Below, one piece after another: positions 10,753-18,935 of a DNA stretch of 40,696 nt (positions are counted from its first letter, which is position 1; each line of letters begins with the position of its first letter). The DNA comes from a virus (lineage: Duplodnaviria > Heunggongvirae > Uroviricota > Caudoviricetes): IMG/VR virus record IMGVR_UViG_2541047870_000003; one strand, 5' to 3'. The position numbers were made by a program, and so were the translations under genes. The notes beneath the pieces are model-generated. The model saw nothing but the letters and a program-made list of their open reading frames with translations, was not told the origin of the DNA and ran no database searches.

Positions 10753-11514
10753 ATGGAGACTGTTTTTGACGCACTGAAAGCAATGGGAAAAGCCACATCC
10801 ATAGAACTTGCTGCGCGACTTGATATCAGTCGTGAAGAAGTGCTGAACGAACTATGGGAACTGAAAAAGGCTGGTTTTGTTGATAAAAGCGCGTACACCT
10901 GGCGTGTGGCTGATAACAACGTTCAGCAGGAACAGCCAGCGCAGGCAGAACTGCCGGAAGAAATCACCACAGCAACAGTAGCGAAAATCTCAGAGTGCGA
11001 TTTAACCGCGACGATTGAACAACGAGGACCACAAACGGCTGATGAGCTGGCTACATTGTTTGGTACCACATCACGCAAAGTGGCTTCAACGCTGGCAATG
11101 GCAATCAGCAAAGGTCGTCTGATTCGCGTAAATCAGGGCGGTAAATTTCGTTACTGCATACCGGGCGATAATTTACCAGCAGAGCCGAAAGCAGCATCGG
11201 TAGCGGAAACTGATGGTAAGGCCTTTCCTCAGACCGCAGGTGTTGCGTTACCAGTACAGGAGGCTGCAACACAGGAAGATATTAAAACAGAAACTGTGGC
11301 GGACATTGTGCAGTCGCTGCCATCGTTTACTGAAACGCGAGCGGATGACCTGGTTTTACCATCACTGCATATGGCAAACCGCGAACTGCGTCGGGCGAAA
11401 AATCATGTCCAGAAGTGGGAGCGTGTCTGCGCCGCGCTGCGTGAGTTGAACAAGCACAGGGATATTGTACGACAGATTACTGATTCTTCCCGCCATGTTG
11501 CATCGGAAAAGTGA
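10753..11514 (+). CDS. Hypothetical protein (YdaW-like), start at [13 protein letters not shown]
   Basis: In-frame ATG with upstream purine-rich stretch inside track ORF 10702-11514; N-terminal HTH-like segment; no function assignable. Confidence 0.5.
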
Positions 11515-11529
11515 TTGCCGGAGGCACCT

Positions 11530-11952
11530 ATGGCAAAAGTATTTACACCAGAAGAGCGAGAAAAAATTAAAGGACAGGTTGTTGAACTCGTACGCCAGAG
11601 TGGGCGTGAGACGTTACGGCAACTGGAAGTCAAGACAGGTGCGACAAGATATCTGATGAGCGTTCTCGCAAGAGAGCTGGTTGCCAGCGGCGATGTATGC
11701 AACTCTGGTTACGGGTTATTCCCGTCTGAACAGGCGCGTAAGGACTGGCAAAATGCCCGTAAAAAGCTCTCAAGGGCAAAGCTGAAGAAACCATCTGCGG
11801 TTGATCCGGACCTTATCTGGTCATTACCTGACGGAGAAATACGTCGCTACGACAGGCGTCAGAACATAATCTGTCGCGAGTGCCGGAAGAGTGAAGTTAT
11901 GCAGCGTGTACTGGCGTTTTATCGGGGAAACTTTCAAGAGGTGCTGTTGTGA
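11530..11952 (+). CDS. Hypothetical protein, 140 aa from MAKVFTPEEREKIKG
   Basis: GGAGG 6 nt upstream of ATG 11530; C-terminal CxxC (CRECRKSE). Confidence 0.45.
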   Translation: MAKVFTPEEREKIKGQVVELVRQSGRETLRQLEVKTGATRYLMSVLARELVASGDVCNSGYGLFPSEQARKDWQNARKKLSRAKLKKPSAVDPDLIWSLPDGEIRRYDRRQNIICRECRKSEVMQRVLAFYRGNFQEVLL

Positions 11953-12112
11953 GCCAAATTAATAATCGGAACTTGGTGAAGTGAAAGAGAAAACATAATC
12001 CAAATCTGAATAATTAAATTCAGCACTGTGAATAAAATAGAGTCCTTAACCGGAGGAATTCCTGCACTCTCAAATCATCAGGAGGCCGCCCGAAAAGGCG
12101 GTGGAGATAATA

Positions 12113-12631
12113 ATGGAAATAACTAAAGAACGATTATTGGAAATAGCAAGTCTTAGTGATGGGGCATTAAGTGATGGGAGAATTATTTCTCCTGATGCTT
12201 ATGAATCAGTTACAAGTATAGAAATAATAACGATGGCTAGGATGCTTCTTGCGCGCTTCAAAAAAGAATATAAAAAACAGGTAGATAGCAATGCTAATAT
12301 ATATGATATTTTGGACGGTTGGGGAGCCTGGGCTGTAGCTGAAAATAGTTCTATTGATTGGCAGGAAATAGCTGATAAATATAAAAATGTTGTTCCTCAT
12401 GGTAAAAAATCACGTCGTCAGTGCAGCAATGATGAAGGGGGTATAATTGATACCTGCATGCTGAGGCTTAAACAATATAGGATAGATGACTATGAGTTAA
12501 TTATCGCTCATTTTGTTATGGGAGTTTCATTGCGTTGTTTAGCTAAGATAAACGAATGTTCAGATGGTAAAATAAGGAAAAAAATGCAAATGGCAATGGG
12601 ATTTATTGCAGGTTGTATCTATTACCGTTGA
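12113..12631 (+). CDS. Q82/QuuD-type antitermination protein Q homologue with about 60-aa N-terminal extension, in accessory island
   Basis: C-terminal half shares the pattern I recall from DLP12 QuuD (GAWA, SRxQC, DD, CMxRLK, CSDGxIxK, GFIxG). Start 12113 chosen for GGAG spacing; track ORF starts at GTG 12101. Memory-based. Confidence 0.55.
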   Translation: MEITKERLLEIASLSDGALSDGRIISPDAYESVTSIEIITMARMLLARFKKEYKKQVDSNANIYDILDGWGAWAVAENSSIDWQEIADKYKNVVPHGKKSRRQCSNDEGGIIDTCMLRLKQYRIDDYELIIAHFVMGVSLRCLAKINECSDGKIRKKMQMAMGFIAGCIYYR

Positions 12632-12636
12632 TTTTT

Positions 12637-12659
12637 TAAGGCGAGTTTCTCTCGCCTTA
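12637..12659. other. Perfect 9-bp stem-loop (TAAGGCGAG/CTCGCCTTA) filling the convergent intergenic gap
   Basis: Seen directly; T-run precedes and A-run follows on the plus strand, so not a canonical intrinsic terminator in either direction. Confidence 0.5.
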
Positions 12660-12661
12660 AA

Positions 12662-14095
12662 TTAACTACAGTAACTATTGATTAAGTGAGAACTGAGCCA
12701 AGAGGTAATTGCATTCGTAGCATGTTCATCAAGCATTGAGAATCCTAATATGATCATTATAAATGAAATCAGCAAAGTCAGAATCACAACGAATGTGGCT
12801 ATAATCTGATAAGCTTTGTATGCCTCTCTTAATGGTGTGACTGCAAGATTCTCATAGTCAGTATCATCAAGAAAACCATATAGTTTATCTCTCCAGACTA
12901 GCCTAGTATTATCAAGTATCTTAAAGTAATTTTTATTTATGAAGAGAGTTGTAACCTGAGATATAAAAATATATATAGATAACGCGAAGAACATATATGG
13001 GAATATGTTATTGGTTATATTAATCTTTGATGCGTCTAGCGCATATTTTATTGCAAATAGACTTATAACCAGAGCCAGATCTTTCCAAAGAGCGGATGTG
13101 ATGTCTTTAGACTGACTTATTATTTTTTGCGTGTCTTCAGCTAAGGTTTTCCTTAGATCGGACAGAGATTTAATAGTCTCTCTGCTGCTAGCGCGAATGT
13201 GGGCCTTATATAGTAATTTTGCTGACTCAAAGGCCATAGGGAGTTTTTTTGGTAAACCCTCACAGAAGGATACATACTCTGGCCATTCTCGTGCTAACTC
13301 ACTTGTGAAGAAAGTATGTTTGAGTTCAATCTCATTGCCCTCAATAAAGATCCAGTTTATTACAGTTTGTAAAACTGAATAGTCGGAAAGCAGAATGTCT
13401 GGATCTCCATAAATTAATTTTTTTGGTGGCTTTCCAGTTAAACAAATTGATTTCTTTTCATCTGCTAATAATTCATTAACGAGAGTGCGACAAAGCATAT
13501 TGCAGGAAACTTGTAACCATTTTTTGAAAAAGTTGTCCTCTTCCTCAGGCATTTTATAAAGTACCCAAGGAGCTATATCAGATGCAGGCATGAACTCACT
13601 AGAATAGAATTTAACGTAGCTCTGTAAATTGATTGAAGTTCGTACGGTTTCATTAGGTTCAATTTTTTCTGGAGCATGGTTCCATGGCTCAACAGAATAT
13701 CCTAAAGTTTCAAATCCATGTTTCAAACCGAGAATATTCACTTTATTGGTTATTGATACTAAATCATCATTGTGTAGAAAAACATTCCACCCTTCGAGCG
13801 TAAAAATATACCTGTTATTTTCGAATGCAATGCATTTTAGCGTAATGTTAAGTTTATCACCTTCACTGCATGACGATGGTTTTACTTCATCATTACAGTC
13901 ATCTTTAACAGTAATTTCAATCCAATTTGGTACGTTTTCGTAAACGTACTGCCAAAGAATGAGTGCATCTTTGTCCATTTTGGCAGAAATTAGAACGCGC
14001 GCAGAATCATTTTTTATTGATTCTGATGCCAAAAATTCAGGGTCTTTCCTTGACGCCTGTATAGACTCATCGATTTTTTGAAGTATCGATGTCAT
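12662..14095 (-). CDS. Hypothetical protein, about 477 aa: about 350-aa soluble N-terminal domain plus three predicted C-terminal transmembrane helices; candidate membrane effector
   Basis: Hydrophobic segments LALVISLFAIKYALDAS, IFPYMFFALSIYIFISQVTTLFI, IIATFVVILTLLISFIMIILGF; GAGGA 9 nt upstream of ATG at 14095; 29-nt overlap with upstream gene. Track ORF extends to 14143. Confidence 0.6.
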   Translation of the reverse strand: MTSILQKIDESIQASRKDPEFLASESIKNDSARVLISAKMDKDALILWQYVYENVPNWIEITVKDDCNDEVKPSSCSEGDKLNITLKCIAFENNRYIFTLEGWNVFLHNDDLVSITNKVNILGLKHGFETLGYSVEPWNHAPEKIEPNETVRTSINLQSYVKFYSSEFMPASDIAPWVLYKMPEEEDNFFKKWLQVSCNMLCRTLVNELLADEKKSICLTGKPPKKLIYGDPDILLSDYSVLQTVINWIFIEGNEIELKHTFFTSELAREWPEYVSFCEGLPKKLPMAFESAKLLYKAHIRASSRETIKSLSDLRKTLAEDTQKIISQSKDITSALWKDLALVISLFAIKYALDASKINITNNIFPYMFFALSIYIFISQVTTLFINKNYFKILDNTRLVWRDKLYGFLDDTDYENLAVTPLREAYKAYQIIATFVVILTLLISFIMIILGFSMLDEHATNAITSWLSSHLINSYCS

Positions 14096-15125
14096 CAGTA
14101 ATAATCCTCGCAGTAGTAACAATAATTTGTTTTCGCCCATCATCTAAGTTTCTTATTTCTGGACGGTCATCTTCATTATAACTAATTACTACACTTTCTG
14201 CAGTTTCAATTTTTCGTCTTGGTGGTTTATGAATGCCATCTGCTTTTATAGTAAAGGATTCGCCTTCAATACCAGCATTTTTTGTTTGAGTTTTGAATGT
14301 GTTGAGAATTGGTGATTTTTCATCTAACGGCCCAAAAATGCTGGTCAATAACGGAGAAGCATCTTCAGGATTATATTCGAAATCAGCTCTGCTTAAAACT
14401 TCATATATTTTATTTACGCCGCTTTTTTGAATTGACTCTGGCAATAATTCTTTATGCCTTTTGAAGGTTATTTTCAGCGCATCAATAAGCTTATTGCAAA
14501 GTTCAATTTCAGAGTTGACTCTTTTAACATTTAAGAAGCCTTTAAAATATCCTGAAATATTGGTTCTTTTACTCCTGTCTTTTACAATAACTTTCCCGCC
14601 TTTCCCACTTGGATCAAGTTGAATTAACGCTATTTTTTGCATTGCCTCAGCTTTTTTTACGAAAGTTTCATGAAATCTTTCTAAAGTAGGCATTTGTTCT
14701 TCAGATAACTCTTCGTCAAGAACATAACGAACCACATCTTCATTATCGTATTTTATAATTGCATAGAATTTTTCCTTATCTGAAACCAATTCAAATAAGA
14801 AAAAGCATCCCATACTCGTGTTACCGCTAGAATGGTGTGACTGAAAATCACTGGCCAGTAGCTTCGATTGTTCTGTAAAACAATTAGCTTCAGCATCTGC
14901 TTTATCTCTAATGATACGCAGGATTCTTTCGGTATTTGAATTCTCCAGAAAAGTGAAAAGATTTCCTTTCAGTGAAGATTTGATACGTTCAAGAAAAAAA
15001 TCCACATGCTGAACTGGTTTTATTTCTTTGAGAAGTGTCGGTGCTTCAAGATTCTTACCTACAACGTGAAAGATCATTTTATTAATGACTAAATTTTGTA
15101 CGTCTTGTTCAGAAAGGAAACTCAT
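14067..15125 (-). CDS. Hypothetical soluble protein, 352 aa; weak resemblance to NA37/YejK-type nucleoid-associated proteins; candidate sensor
   Basis: GGAG 5 nt upstream of ATG at 15125; N-terminal INKMIFHVVGK and central GCFFLFELV...FYAIIKY segments resemble YejK as I recall it. Low-certainty, memory-based. Confidence 0.55.
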   Translation of the reverse strand: MSFLSEQDVQNLVINKMIFHVVGKNLEAPTLLKEIKPVQHVDFFLERIKSSLKGNLFTFLENSNTERILRIIRDKADAEANCFTEQSKLLASDFQSHHSSGNTSMGCFFLFELVSDKEKFYAIIKYDNEDVVRYVLDEELSEEQMPTLERFHETFVKKAEAMQKIALIQLDPSGKGGKVIVKDRSKRTNISGYFKGFLNVKRVNSEIELCNKLIDALKITFKRHKELLPESIQKSGVNKIYEVLSRADFEYNPEDASPLLTSIFGPLDEKSPILNTFKTQTKNAGIEGESFTIKADGIHKPPRRKIETAESVVISYNEDDRPEIRNLDDGRKQIIVTTARIITDDIDTSKNR

Positions 15126-15166
15126 CCTGACTCCATAATCAAGCAGATTAGAACTATGACTAGTCT

Positions 15167-15195
15167 AGTATATGCATCTTTTGGTGCGTACGCAA
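15167..15195 (-). promoter_or_regulatory. Candidate sigma70 promoter for the two-gene operon: -35 TTGCGT, 17-bp spacer, -10 TATACT, with 8-bp palindrome GCGTACGC over the -35
   Basis: Seen on the minus strand about 35 nt upstream of the 15125 start codon; hexamers judged by eye. Confidence 0.35.
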
Positions 15196-15454
15196 AAGTT
15201 CTTAAACTCAAAATGTTATCGCGGATAGATCTTTGTAGAGTCAGTGATTGGCGCAGGTAGGTGGTAACAGCAGACAAATAGCTGCGGATACTTGAGGCTA
15301 TCTGCCTCGGGCATGAACATCAAAGGCAGATAGAGAAAAGCCCCAGTTAACATTACGCATCCGGCAAGACGCTTAACATTAATCTGAGGCCAATTTCATG
15401 CTTTGCACATGTAGGTTAGCCTCTTACGTGCCGAAAGGCAAGGAGAAGCAGGCT

Positions 15455-15610
15455 ATGAAGCAGCAAAAGGCGATGTTAGTCGCCCTGATCGTCATCTGTT
15501 TAACCGTTATAGTGACGGTACTGGTAACGAGGAAAGACCTCTGCGAGGTACGAATCCGAACCGACCAGACGGAGGTCGCTGTCTTCACAGCTTACGAACT
15601 TGGGGAGTAA
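15455..15610 (+). CDS. hok: Hok-family type I toxin, 51 aa (MKQQKAMLVALIVICLTVIVTVLVTRKDLCEVRIRTDQTEVAVFTAYELGE)
   Basis: Near-identical to Hok/RelF-family sequences as I recall them; single TM helix; in-frame upstream extension (from 15398) resembles a mok-like leader; 10-bp inverted repeat at 15298-15341 upstream. Confidence 0.8.
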   Translation: MKQQKAMLVALIVICLTVIVTVLVTRKDLCEVRIRTDQTEVAVFTAYELGE

Positions 15611-16072
15611 GAGGACCGGCGGGGAGAAATCCCCGCAACCTCTGATGTATTATGCATCCTCAACGCAGCCACAGTTAACCTGATTGGCGGGTTTATTTCA
15701 TCTGTAAATATATTTATAAAAATAATGCCCACGCACAGCATAAAACAAAAAGTATTACAGATAAAAAAGGAACGTAATGTGCAGATTTGTTGTTTTCCAT
15801 ATTTACTCACCTTAATATGATTAACCCTGATAGGGTTGTTATTTCAGCGGTTTTCAAATGAGATATTATGGTGATCTGGCAGATTTGCATAACATTAAAA
15901 TTTAATTTGTTTAACCGCTTTTAATAATAAGCGTTGTTTGTATCCCAGCAATCTGTTGTTTGGTTTTTATTCCATTAAGGTGGGGCTTTACACTGGAGCC
16001 AGTTTATTTATACTTCATACGTCAGCCTGAACAACTGGCATCTGCTGCGCTGCGCCATCGAGAGATTAAGAA

Positions 16073-16672
16073 ATGGCGCATATACAACTGGTCAAACAAA
16101 CCTCTTCCGGATTACTTCTCCCGGCGACGCCGGAGAGTTGTGATTTTCTGCATCAAATCAAAATAGGCGAGTGGATACACGCAGACTTTAAGCGTGTGCG
16201 TAACTACGCATTCCACAAGCGTTTTTTCAAACTCCTGCAACTGGGATTCGATTACTGGACTCCGGTCGGTGGGGCGATCACGCCACGCGAACGAGAACTG
16301 CTGTCTGGTTTCGTTGATTACCTGTGCGAATCAGTTGGTCGGGAACACACGCCAGCCCTGAGTGAGGCCGCAGAGCAATATCTGAATACAGTTGCGACAC
16401 GCAGAACCCGGGATACGGCATTGCTAAAGTCGTTTGAGGCTTTTCGCGAGTGGGTAACCATTCAGGCTGGATTTTACACCGAACATTTTTATCCGGACGG
16501 TAGCCATGGGCGTCGGGCGAAATCCATCGCTTTTGCGAATATGGATGAAACCGAGTTTCAGCAGGTTTATAAATCTGTTCTGAATGTGCTGTGGAACTGG
16601 ATTCTGTTCCGTAAATTTTCCTCTCCGGAACAAGTCGAAAATGTGGCCGCGCAGCTGCTGGAGTTTGCGTAA
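16073..16672 (+). CDS. DUF1367 family protein (DLP12 YbcN-like), nin-region gene, 199 aa
   Basis: Recalled similarity to YbcN; position upstream of YbcO-like gene and Q. Confidence 0.6.
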   Translation: MAHIQLVKQTSSGLLLPATPESCDFLHQIKIGEWIHADFKRVRNYAFHKRFFKLLQLGFDYWTPVGGAITPRERELLSGFVDYLCESVGREHTPALSEAAEQYLNTVATRRTRDTALLKSFEAFREWVTIQAGFYTEHFYPDGSHGRRAKSIAFANMDETEFQQVYKSVLNVLWNWILFRKFSSPEQVENVAAQLLEFA

Positions 16673-16962
16673 TGGTGGATTTACGTAAAGCGGCGCGGGG
16701 GCAGATGTGCGCCGTCAGAATTCCTGGCTACTGCAATCACGATCCGGAAACGTCTGTGCTGGCGCATTACCGACTGGCGGGAACGTGCGGAACAGCGACA
16801 AAACCACACGATATGCAGGCGGCGATTGCCTGTAGCTCATGCCACGATCTAATCGACGGGCGGGTAAAAACCAGCGATTACACCAAAGAAGAATTACGCC
16901 TGATGCATGCAGAAGGTGTTTTTCGCACACAAGAAATCTGGAGAAAGGAGGGATATTTGTGA
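16672..16962 (+). CDS. DUF1364 family protein (YbcO-like), 96 aa, Cys/His-rich
   Basis: CxxH/CxxC-type motifs (CSSCHDL, CNHD); ATGG start overlaps upstream stop; recalled similarity to YbcO. Confidence 0.65.
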   Translation: MVDLRKAARGQMCAVRIPGYCNHDPETSVLAHYRLAGTCGTATKPHDMQAAIACSSCHDLIDGRVKTSDYTKEELRLMHAEGVFRTQEIWRKEGYL

Positions 16963-17501
16963 TTTACCCAACGAATACAGGAAAAAGCGGAGAACACCTT
17001 CGTCTCGCCACGCTGGAAAGTGTCTGGATTCAGGGCAAACTGCGTATGTGGGGGCGCTGGTCGTATATTGGCGGTGGCAGGTCAGGAAATATGTTCAATC
17101 AGTTGTTGGCATCCAAAAAATTGACGAAAACAGCCATCAATGAAGCCCTGCGCAGAATGAAAAAAGCGGGAATAGAGAAAGCTGAGCTGGAAGCGTTTTT
17201 GCGAGAGATGATCAACGGCAAGCAAAAGAGCTGGCTGGCGCATTGTACTGATGCAGAGGCGTTATGTATTGATCGAGTCATAAGTGAGGTGCTGGCAGAG
17301 CATCCAGGATTGATTAGCGTCCTTCGGCAACGGTATGAGGGGCGGGGGATGACCAAACGCAAAATGGCTGAATTGCTAAATGATGCACACCCAGAGTGGT
17401 GTTTTAGCACATGCGAAAAGCGAATTGCTAATTGGTTGGCCGTTGCTGAGTATGCGCTATACATTCCCATGCGAGAATCATTCGCTCAAAAAACGGCTTG
17501 A
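16959..17501 (+). CDS. Putative late antiterminator Q (positional call), 180 aa from GTG
   Basis: GGAGGG 6 nt upstream of GTG 16959, overlapping upstream stop; last gene before the AT-rich late-promoter region, tRNAs and lysis cassette. Family not recognised with certainty. Confidence 0.5.
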   Translation: MIYPTNTGKSGEHLRLATLESVWIQGKLRMWGRWSYIGGGRSGNMFNQLLASKKLTKTAINEALRRMKKAGIEKAELEAFLREMINGKQKSWLAHCTDAEALCIDRVISEVLAEHPGLISVLRQRYEGRGMTKRKMAELLNDAHPEWCFSTCEKRIANWLAVAEYALYIPMRESFAQKTA

Positions 17502-17586
17502 TTTTTTACGCATAAACTGCTTCAATTTTGCTACGCTTCGCAAAGCTGTATCGCGAGGCGAATCAAGCGCAATTAAACTTTAATAG

Positions 17587-17618
17587 AACCCGCCATCAAG
17601 CGGGTTTTGTTGTTATTG
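17587..17618 (+). terminator. Intrinsic terminator-like hairpin downstream of Q (AACCCGC-catcaa-GCGGGTT followed by TTGTTGTTATTG)
   Basis: Perfect 7-bp stem plus T-rich tail, seen directly. Confidence 0.5.
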
Positions 17619-17821
17619 TGGTGTGATATAAGAAACGACATTTAATATTGCCTTCAAAATAAATTTGTTTATATATTGTCGCGTATATTTTAAGTGAAGG
17701 TGAAATGTTCACATAAAATAAAAATACATAAATAAATTTACATAGCTTGACGCAAAGTGTTGTTGCGATTGGAATATTAAATTGTATCATCGAAAACGGT
17801 TCTGAGGGGGAACTCTTCTTT

Positions 17822-17903
17822 GCTCGGTGATATCGCTCGGTGATATCGCTCGGTGATATCGCTCGGTGATATCGCTCGGTGATATCGCTCGGTGATATCG
17901 CTC
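17822..17903. repeat. Perfect direct tandem repeat: 13-bp unit GCTCGGTGATATC x6 plus 4-nt partial copy; each unit has an EcoRV site
   Basis: Counted by hand from the sequence; units identical. Confidence 0.9.
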
Positions 17904-17918
17904 CCCTGAAGAACCAAT

Positions 17919-17994
<76 letters not shown>

Positions 17995-17997
17995 TAT

Positions 17998-18072
<75 letters not shown>

Positions 18073-18280
18073 GTTAGAGTCTTTCAGTCTGCGATGATGG
18101 GAAATCCCGGAGTGACTGAAAGACGTTTAAGTTATGAATGATCGCTTTTTTTAGCAAAATTGCTGTGCAGAAATACTAACCTTCGGGCAGGCGATCATTC
18201 ATAAGCACTCTGCTTTTATTCCGATTAACTGTGGGTGGTTTGTTGGATAGAGTGCTTTCCTTACTGTATATATTGTTTCG

Positions 18281-18306
18281 CCCGCTTTTGCGGGCTTTTC
18301 TTTTCA
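18281..18306 (+). terminator. Intrinsic terminator (GCCCGC-tttt-GCGGGC followed by TTTTCTTTTC); candidate tR'-like terminator between tRNAs and holin
   Basis: Perfect 6-bp GC stem plus U-tract, seen directly. Confidence 0.6.
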
Positions 18307-18364
18307 AATCCCTTTCATTTCTCAGTGTAAAACTACGCCATCCGTTATTTGCGGAGGTGAGGCT

Positions 18365-18580
18365 ATGAAATCCATGGACAAAATTTCAACGGGCATTGCC
18401 TATGGCACCTCCGCAGGCAGTGCTGGCTACTGGTTTTTACAGTGGCTTGATCAGGTCAGTCCGTCACAGTGGGCTGCGATTGGTGTGCTGGGGAGTCTGG
18501 TTCTGGGCTTCCTGACTTATCTGACAAATCTGTACTTCAAAATCAGAGAAGACAAGCGTAAGGCTGCACGGGGAGAGTAA
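18365..18580 (+). CDS. S: Phage-21-type pinholin S21 with dual-start motif (Met1-Lys-Ser-Met4)
   Basis: [27 protein letters not shown]... matches S21 as recalled; two TM segments; Lys between the two Met codons. Confidence 0.85.
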
Positions 18581-18584
18581 TTCA

Positions 18585-18935
18585 ATGACTCAAAACTATG
18601 AACTGATTGTGAAAGGGATCCGCAATTTTGAGAATAAAGTTACGGTAACTTTAGCGTTACGGGACAAAAAACGCTTTGACGGTGAAATTTTTGACCTGGA
18701 CATCTCGCTGGACCGTGTTGAAGGTGCCGCGCTGGAGTTTTATGAGGCAGCAGCCAGAATGAGCATCAGACAGGTCTTCCTGGATGTTGCTGCCGGGTTA
18801 TGTGAAGGGGATGAGCAGTCGCCGGAAAAGCGCCCCGTAATTTTAGAGGCGCAGAATGTATGGATAACCTACAAAGGAAAGCTACCGGGAAGAATTACTG
18901 GTTCTCTGAAGACTCCTCCGGAATCACAACCTTAA
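18585..18935 (+). CDS. Hypothetical protein, 116 aa, inserted between holin and endolysin
   Basis: GGAGAG upstream of ATG; no recognisable motif. Confidence 0.5.
   Translation: MTQNYELIVKGIRNFENKVTVTLALRDKKRFDGEIFDLDISLDRVEGAALEFYEAAARMSIRQVFLDVAAGLCEGDEQSPEKRPVILEAQNVWITYKGKLPGRITGSLKTPPESQP

Follow-up and report, generated by a model that had tools for sequence, protein, structure and literature searches.

By the textbook definition, a Q protein is a late-gene antiterminator whose marks are its position and a qut site at the late promoter, and the question raised by the virus record IMGVR_UViG_2541047870_000003 is what a gene of this kind is doing away from the late genes. The record, 40,696 nucleotides of Caudoviricetes DNA (the whole stretch is here called the window), represents a Rac-like lambdoid prophage of Escherichia coli. 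The gene in question, at positions 12113–12631, is not directly upstream of the late operon but closes the run of replication and early genes, with 4.8 kb between it and the positional Q gene and 6.2 kb between it and the holin gene. An original prediction, made from the letters of the sequence, had described it as a Q82/QuuD-type antiterminator gene stranded in an island about 5 kb upstream of the canonical Q position, a distance that the measurement bears out, and had proposed that it was either a relic of a module exchange that brought the island in or a regulator repurposed for cargo genes. Several lines of evidence are consistent with a transplanted module of Q gene, cargo and predicted Q-binding site, the Q protein of which would now, as we consider moderately likely from comparison of loci, regulate the cargo promoter and not the late genes of the phage.

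The gene is intact and real. Its plus-strand open reading frame (ORF) begins with ATG at 12113 and ends with TGA at 12629–12631, a Shine-Dalgarno sequence GGAG lies 7 nt 5′ of the start, and the product has 172 amino acids (aa); this extended Q gene is referred to here as extQ. PF06530 (Phage_antitermQ) matches residues 62–169 over profile positions 3–110 of 118, with E=1.3e-33 and 115.9 bits against a cut-off of 26, PHROG 79 (“anti-termination protein Q-like”) matches with E=5e-33, and a profile of the family matches the solved Q21 (6P18/6JNX) with E=1.7e-5. The family is thus already known, and the protein is already named in RefSeq, as “antiterminator Q family protein”. The AlphaFold model used was made from a 60-sequence alignment with distant representatives and has a mean predicted local distance difference test score (pLDDT) of 86.8, exceeding 93 in the Q domain; an earlier model from 42 close homologues (pLDDT 55.7) was discarded. 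When the model was compared with the PDB by Foldseek, the best 12 matches were all Q21 chains (probability 1.00, template modeling scores 0.52/0.59–0.63), followed by region 4 domains of extracytoplasmic function sigma factors bound to −35 DNA, and a resemblance to sigma region 4 has been published for Q21 itself. By profile and modeled fold, extQ is an N-terminally extended member of the Q21/Q933W/QuuD antiterminator family, that is, of the phage-21/QuuD type of late-gene regulator, with the antiterminator domain and its predicted sigma-region-4-like helix-turn-helix at residues 62–172 (12296–12631, plus strand).

Half of the earlier label therefore stands. PF06530 is the Q21/Q933W family, Q82 belongs to PF06323 and Q-lambda to PF03589, and PF06323 is a separate family without obvious sequence similarity to PF06530 (PMC9388147). 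The Pfam matches listed for extQ at E≤1 included no PF06323 and no PF03589, so that the Q82 part falls away, whereas QuuD-type proteins belong to PF06530 and the DLP12-type Q of phage mEp332 matched the extQ protein. With the Q of phage 21 (PDB 6P18, 6P19, 6P1A-C, 6JNX, 6JNY) extQ has in common the Pfam family and the predicted sigma-region-4-like fold with its helix-turn-helix, but identity is 12–17% over the structural alignment and only extQ has the 61-aa N-terminal extension.

Short positional Qs of the same subfamily, of about 113–120 aa and without the extension, are the only Q in their phages. Those compared, of 104–115 aa, came from Shigella phage SfII, the Shiga toxin (Stx) phages Stx1_499 (Stx1a) and Stx2a_1447, 569R4, and Klebsiella phage Kp4865-4. 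The Q domain of extQ is 55–61% identical to the short Qs of SfII and the Stx phages, without internal gaps relative to most of them, the Q of SfII having a 13-residue internal deletion, and the recognition-helix region is common to both groups. In the window this region reads C-S-D-G-K-I-R-K, residue 153 (12566–12571) being K (SDGKIRK), a place taken by T or S in every other member examined, extended or short; despite this K, the site described below is unchanged. The ratio of nonsynonymous to synonymous substitution rates (dN/dS) of the extQ Q domain is 0.10–0.48 at dS 0.4–1.4, including in the half outside the helix-turn-helix, and every residue invariant in the family alignment is retained. 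The domain is under purifying selection across its whole length and not in the helix-turn-helix alone, as judged from these substitution patterns, which together with the retained residues argues that extQ is maintained by selection.

The surroundings of the gene are equally constant. Of 5,426 complete E. coli genomes, 60 have a single copy of the extension’s DNA, and 29 of these carry the window’s 3.5-kb island; extQ is full-length in the 60 genomes and in 23 IMG/VR loci, always in one layout. Among the loci for which the ORF was inspected none had a disrupted copy, although two of the 23 IMG/VR copies were split in a tblastn re-check and may be frameshifted. The extQ loci compared were from E. 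coli, Salmonella and metagenome contigs, four further complete genomes, and the 23 IMG/VR loci, and in 46 of 46 examined (E. coli, Salmonella, IMG/VR) the order is identical: a conserved leader, extQ on the plus strand, one to three variable cargo genes on the reverse strand, the site TGCGTACGCAAAA, and hok/sok. In the window, extQ converges on two reverse-strand genes (12662–14143 and 14067–15125) with a stem-loop between them at 12627–12666, as had been described. The remaining prophage varies among extQ loci, with different upstream neighbors and a positional Q that is of DUF1133 type in some and of lambda type (PF03589) in others; since the positional Q is sometimes of lambda type, extQ is independent of the late module. 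A recurrent fixed layout, the low dN/dS and the retention of all family-invariant residues do not agree with a gene that is stranded or a relic.

Both flanks of the arrangement are sharp. On the left is a conserved non-coding leader of about 160 bp (11953–12112, plus strand), lying between the DUF977 (Ren-like) gene and the hotspot contents that extend to hok, and nearly identical among extQ loci with different cargo. The leader also occurs in phages with other genes at this place, namely Rac-SA53, PhiR42_1 and 666R9, the homology of which to the window ends at 12102–12111, at the Q start codon. On the right is the hok/sok toxin-antitoxin system (15286–15610, plus strand; Rfam RF01794, 99.4 bits; Hok/Gef annotation). 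Among extQ loci, DNA homology extends through the leader and on into Q, is interrupted in the 3′ part of that gene, and resumes at 15276–15283, at the 5′ end of the hok region, which presumably lies near the 5′ end of the hok mRNA if the hok transcript of plasmid R1 is a guide. The sharp flanks and the sharing of the leader with loci that hold other genes suggest an accessory hotspot between Ren and hok, of which extended Q plus cargo is one class of occupant. Another occupant, in Rac-SA53, is a P4 beta-like (PF14350) and “cII-like” pair with an IS1 insertion; it resembles the extQ module in its slot, leader, hok flank, and plus-strand first gene converging on minus-strand cargo, but has neither a Q domain nor the GCGTACGC site. 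In phage 666R9 the slot is held by a phrog_660 protein and a KilA-N protein.

Beyond the cargo lies a predicted Q-binding element, TGCGTACGCAAAA at 15185–15197, made up of a perfect 10-bp palindrome (TGCGTACGCA, 15185–15194) and an A-tract. It is the single such site in the 40.7-kb window, with one exact match and near-matches at chance level. The palindrome occurs exactly once per extQ locus (46/46), the site lies 55–82 bp 5′ of the first cargo start codon in every extQ locus where the distance was measured, and its 13 nt are invariant in 8 cassette variants in which the flanks vary freely. The site was not found in three hotspot loci without extQ, nor in two loci with other Q subfamilies. 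A role for the palindrome as a cassette boundary or a site of recombination was also weighed and rejected, since its distance to the hok flank ranges over about 85–215 bp while that to the cargo start is fixed at 55–82 bp.

The element overlaps the −35 hexamer of a predicted cargo promoter (15160–15199, minus strand), which from its sequence is of sigma-70 type: TTGCGT at 15195–15190, a 17-nt spacer, TATACT as −10 at 15172–15167, and a T-tract just 5′ of the −35. The site covers −33 to −26 of this promoter, and the cargo start codon at 15125 is about 35 nt past the predicted transcription start. The same minus-strand pattern of T-tract, TTGCGT, 17–18 nt and TAnnnT precedes almost every cargo type in both extQ and short-Q loci within otherwise unrelated sequences, the −10 and spacer sequences differing among cargo types. 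The original prediction had directed attention to a qut-like site and promoter downstream of 12631; a site is present there, on the far side of the cargo, but no late promoter and no terminator accompany it.

An identity for the site is suggested by the canonical loci. In short-Q phages the order is Q, one to three reverse-strand genes (“morons”), (C/T)GCGTACGCAAAA, a conserved plus-strand block, and the late genes or stx, the block consisting of TATnGT ... GTTAAGAGTGGTTACTTCGCCACAC ... and a hairpin with T-run, with an element GTTAAGAGTGG within it. Among IMG/VR short-Q loci with enough sequence, 53 of 54 have the site and 49 of those 53 the hairpin/T-run block. One locus without cargo (L075) has the site 39 bp past the Q stop, which argues that the site is a component of the Q unit, not of the cargo, and that cargo is inserted between Q and site. 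In these phages the site falls in the spacer of a predicted late promoter, while its other strand supplies the −35 TTGCGT of the moron promoter. If TATnGT is taken as the −10, the palindrome has its center close to −22.5, and AAGAGT, which resembles a −10 element, spans roughly +3 to +8. This geometry matches that of the published phage 21 late promoter, whose spacer contains subsites for Q at −21 and −13 and whose paused bubble begins at +3 (PMC6606751). The predicted cognate site thus has about the same place in the promoter spacer as the Q21 binding element, although the Q21 site comprises two direct TGAGCA repeats as opposed to a palindrome and A-tract, and in the extQ locus, unlike that of Q21, the site is accompanied by neither a late promoter nor a pause element nor a terminator.

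The strongest evidence here for the site as a predicted binding element is covariation of palindrome with recognition helix. In the extQ/short-Q subfamily palindrome GCGTACGC goes with helix SDGTIRK; in an Stx2d phage GCGGTCCGC goes with SEKAIRI; and in mEp332, with a DLP12-type QuuD and nmpC as reverse cargo, ACGTACGT goes with SDGYIGK. All are set in a late-promoter scaffold shared by QuuD/Q21-like phages (A-tract, TATnGT, GTTAAGAGTGGTTAC..., hairpin and T-run; compared at L112 3385–3470, L113 5035–5120, L013 7539–7620 and L028–L031), within which the palindromes differ with the recognition helix of the Q. QuuD of DLP12 and the Q of mEp332 are like extQ in family and in an order of Q, reverse moron (the porin gene nmpC), palindromic site with late-promoter scaffold, and lysis genes; they are unlike it in having about 38% identity, another palindrome and recognition helix, and the position of a conventional Q. 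The palindrome-helix pairing looks like a ready-made specificity code for the QuuD/Q21-like family. Direct comparison of the Q-to-stx intergenic region of an Stx1 phage with the window gave chance-level similarity only, the link being visible solely through the short motif.

The interval from Q stop to site is itself a second cargo hotspot in almost all short-Q loci (L054–L111; SfII, Stx1_499, Stx2a_1447, 569R4, Kp4865-4, mEp332). Its morons are of many unrelated types, such as nmpC in mEp332, each behind TTGCGT-17/18-TAnnnT and using the site as −35, and the moron promoter there may be Q-sensitive.

These comparisons bear on origin. Short-Q loci and extQ loci share, beyond the Q domain and its recognition-helix region, the GCGTACGCAAAA site, convergent cargo and some of the cargo types: three types were found in both contexts, at 22–80% protein identity. 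Moreover, a contiguous 1.6-kb segment running from inside Q through the whole cargo is 75% identical in DNA between one extQ cassette (L018) and the canonical 569R4 locus (L028). The shared cargo types and this collinearity indicate that the extQ module was derived from a canonical late-control region, and the module exchange that had been proposed is in this respect supported. The short-Q loci differ in that Q has no extension and lies just upstream of the late genes, and in that the site is followed by the late-promoter, pause and terminator block where the extQ locus has hok. Neither the window nor any of the 23 extQ IMG/VR loci has the block or the terminator; the rightward late −10 has been lost in extQ loci, the final T of TAnnnT being gone in 5 of 6 cassette types. 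It is well supported by these alignments that the window holds, in the Ren-hok hotspot, the apparently transplanted left two-thirds of a canonical unit, comprising Q, cargo, site and cargo promoter.

The N-terminal extension (residues 1–61; 12113–12295, plus strand) has a different history. It matches phrog_3323 (E=1e-13), a family without functional annotation, and this module also begins an unrelated 167-aa hotspot protein of phage 666R9 (E=1e-8). A tblastn search of 50,697 phage records gave 401 matches to extQ, all over residues 62–172 only and at no more than 59% identity, with none to residues 1–61, and among 1.84 billion representative proteins there is one single full-length cluster for extQ. 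Among relatives of extQ the extension is nearly identical. It is modeled as helices at 5–16 and 27–30 and a long helix at 35–78 that continues into the Q domain (pLDDT 62–84). Because the phrog_3323 module heads an unrelated first gene at the Ren-hok hotspot, the fusion was probably made there, and the 61-aa extension is probably native to the hotspot and separate in origin from Q. A fusion with the small ORF preceding the short Q in an Stx1 phage was considered as the source and rejected, no similarity being found.

We favor with moderate confidence a reading in which extQ acts on the cargo promoter. As the last gene of the early-right operon, and with no convincing promoter of its own, extQ is probably made only upon prophage induction; it would then bind the predicted site at 15185–15197 over the cargo −35 and alter cargo transcription. 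The favored direction is shut-off, by competition with sigma region 4, which would silence a probably toxic or abortive cargo during the prophage’s own replication. Repression is favored because the promoter, whose positions −33 to −26 lie under the site, seems competent without an activator, because convergent early transcription would reinforce the shut-off, and because morons on the reverse strand are normally active in lysogens, at a time when there is no Q. The opposite direction, in which Q would engage RNA polymerase at the cargo promoter to activate or antiterminate cargo transcription, is also to be considered, and both the regulation and its direction are read from the arrangement of elements. 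Of the two explanations originally proposed, the repurposed regulator is, on indirect evidence, the better, inasmuch as the site is invariant over the cargo −35 while the late-promoter half has been lost.

Several points weigh against regulation of the cargo promoter by extQ. Invariance of the site could partly reflect the cargo −35, or recent capture from canonical loci where it is under selection. This account is countered by the spacer-side half ACGCA, which is also invariant, by the closest pair found, which has only 75% DNA identity, and by the base before the core, which is T in extQ loci (8/8) and mostly C in canonical loci (18/22). The core of the site is palindromic, whereas Q21 binds direct repeats as two protomers; the late promoter of short-Q phages is a prediction with a poor −35; and the recognition helix of the window’s extQ has K in place of the T or S of its relatives. 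Finally, the half of the domain outside the helix-turn-helix is conserved although a simple repressor would not need it, which favors some polymerase-directed activity.

That last point leads to an alternative, if an unlikely one. Here extQ would still be able to modify polymerase and would load onto it directly at the cargo promoter, replacing sigma region 4 at initiation and then riding with the polymerase. Conservation of the half that does not bind DNA keeps this alive, as does spacing: the palindrome stands at the −35 place, 17 bp 5′ of the cargo −10, compared with 16 bp from the downstream subsite of Q21 to its pause element. If it were true, the cassette would be a portable unit of antiterminator, loading site and cargo, and its AT-rich (about 34% GC) accessory or defence genes would evade silencing by Rho or H-NS, though not before early transcription of the prophage has begun. 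More generally, the Qs of the clade would each work as a switch in both directions, governing the divergent moron and late promoters from a single common site.

Conservation of the whole Q domain, not of its DNA-binding part alone, would also be expected if extQ acted in trans on co-resident or invading phages of the same subfamily (SfII-like and several Stx1/Stx2 phages), either firing their late genes prematurely or blocking their Q, with cross-induction or exclusion as the outcome. The predicted late promoters of SfII- and Stx-type phages contain the same site, and extQ and the short Qs have a common recognition-helix region. We regard this as improbable, since it leaves the retention of the site beside the cargo in every extQ locus unexplained and since no promoter was found from which extQ could be expressed in an uninduced lysogen.

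It is at least as doubtful that extQ is a passenger without function of its own, its gene and site surviving as homology arms and cargo promoter that enable cassettes to be swapped between canonical Q loci and the hotspot. Such an origin would fit the steady rise of dS from 5′ to 3′ along the Q gene, the recombination joint inside Q, and the location of the palindrome within the cargo promoter, where any junction that keeps the promoter keeps the site. It would not account for the low dN/dS across the Q domain at high dS, nor for the lack of disrupted copies among loci with the ORF read (the two possibly frameshifted IMG/VR copies aside), nor for invariance in 8 variants of all 13 nt, including spacer positions that the promoter does not need, while late-promoter elements decayed.

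A role as early-operon read-through factor seems very unlikely. In place of lambda N, extQ would let early-right transcription cross the island, hok and the hairpins at 15677–16000 to reach the nin-like genes and positional Q; 2.5 kb of antisense cargo does indeed follow extQ, the final early gene, and five plus-strand terminator-like hairpins lie ahead of DUF1367. However, Q-family proteins load at a promoter-proximal pause adjoining the binding element (PMC6606751), and no site is found upstream of the island, while the sole site, at 15185, has no plus-strand −10 or pause element. Thousands of E. coli genomes match only small parts of the 3.5-kb island query, for example the hok/sok end, and only 60 carry extQ; furthermore, a plus-strand promoter-like site at 15987–16014 lies just before DUF1367. 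That extQ is a genuine second late-gene antiterminator of the prophage, or its only functional Q, is largely refuted in spite of its bona fide family and complete domain, because no cognate site or late-promoter block occurs anywhere near the lysis and late genes, the late promoter and terminator that accompany the site in real late regions are missing here, the canonical slot is held by a DUF1133 Q-like gene, and the positional Q is sometimes of lambda type in related extQ loci.

That positional candidate (16959–17501, plus strand) is not part of the module. It belongs to DUF1133 (PF06576, E=1e-107; PHROG 753 “Q-like”, E=3e-79), and the expectation that a different protein fills the canonical slot was correct, no similarity to the 12113 protein being detectable by BLASTP. 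In a Pfam check of both candidates, the match of the DUF1133 protein to PF06530 was marginal (27.4 bits against the cut-off of 26); as it barely reaches that threshold, DUF1133 may be a distant branch of the Q21 superfamily. Near it there is no TGCGTACGCAAAA-type site and no late-promoter block of the extended-Q subfamily. Two tRNA genes (17919–18069) follow, then holin and lysozyme.

The wider gene order was read from a near-identical genome. From the left it is recET, kilR, sieB, ydaS/T, replication genes, DUF1627 and DUF977 (Ren-like); onward it is extQ (plus), a hypothetical gene (minus), an NA37-like “nucleoid-associated protein” gene (minus), hok/sok, DUF1367, YbcO, DUF1133, two tRNAs, holin and lysozyme. 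In the window, an AT-rich stretch begins on the left with extQ: GC is 0.32–0.40 over approximately 11750–15350 and about 0.50 on either side. The leader holds no convincing sigma-70 promoter, the best candidate having 8 of 12 matches with poor spacing, and no plus-strand terminator-like sites were called from 11800 to the end of extQ. A leader hairpin at 12085–12102 was discounted as it folds no better than shuffled sequence (z=−0.15). The stem-loop between extQ and the convergent cargo gene (12627–12666, both strands) is stable, at −18.4 kcal/mol on the plus and −19.6 kcal/mol on the minus strand (z=−7.2); it has no U-tract on either strand, was not called as a terminator, and is absent from relatives, in which extQ and the cargo genes abut or overlap by 4 bp. 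An Rfam scan of 11000–18600 returned only sok and the two tRNAs. Five plus-strand terminator-like hairpins are clustered at 15677–16000 in the AT-rich gap between hok and DUF1367, resembling the nin-region terminators of lambda, and a promoter-like site TTTACA-16-TATACT lies at 15987–16014 on the plus strand just ahead of DUF1367.

The cargo itself consists of accessory genes, probably phage-exclusion genes. In the window, cargo gene 1 (14067–15125, minus strand) encodes a 352-aa NA37/YejK-like protein (PF04245, E=9e-13, residues 18–335; RefSeq “nucleoid-associated protein”). Cargo gene 2 (12662–14143, minus strand) encodes a 493-aa protein, or 477 aa from the later start in RefSeq, with C-terminal membrane helices (hydropathy peaks at 383–403 and 441–473); it matched no Pfam, PHROG or PADLOC family and is hypothetical in RefSeq. 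Against PADLOC-DB 2.0 neither extQ nor either window cargo protein had a match at E≤1, and PADLOC on the cargo of related loci gave nothing significant, only marginal matches such as RexB (E=0.0015) for the 159-aa partner of DUF6731 in L002; no description of DUF6731 was found in a literature search. At least seven cargo types occur in extQ loci: the 493-aa and NA37-like pair of the window, a 406–410-aa protein with a very different NA37-like one, a 159-aa protein with DUF6731, a three-gene set, a single 332-aa gene, and pairs of 182 and 309 aa and of 199 and 311 aa. The combination of an NA37/YejK-like protein with a 400–490-aa partner is found repeatedly among the cargo, in three or more very divergent versions (window 12662–15125; L008 7513–9880; L029 3866–6065), one of them in a Klebsiella phage. 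The window pair, a soluble DNA-binding-type protein and a membrane protein, recalls the layout of RexA/RexB, and RexA and the N-domain of YejK have each been reported to be weakly RdgC-like (PMC11077077, PMC11229321). In E. coli EC1722-1 (L001 11168–12226), where the island is otherwise 99.9% identical, the NA37-like gene is annotated as two coding sequences (723 and 321 nt) and is apparently disrupted, whereas the window copy is intact (352 aa). The GiPD474 defence gene was set aside as a precedent, being located in the immunity region and so in a different context.

In the literature we found no description of the gene, its extended form or the hotspot, and none of the constant pairing of extQ with its retained site and exchangeable cargo, of the late-promoter loss, or of one site shared by divergent moron and late promoters. 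In extQ, a Q-family protein is detached from the late genes; it has a foreign module at its N terminus and, along with its predicted site, is linked to exchangeable accessory genes. A more general feature of the QuuD/Q21-like clade would be the placement of morons between Q and its binding site, with the moron promoter using the predicted site as −35. If this is true, Q could directly couple the turning on of late genes to the turning off of lysogenic-conversion genes. Both ideas would extend the known targets of Q proteins and define two related cargo hotspots that may be mined for new prophage functions.

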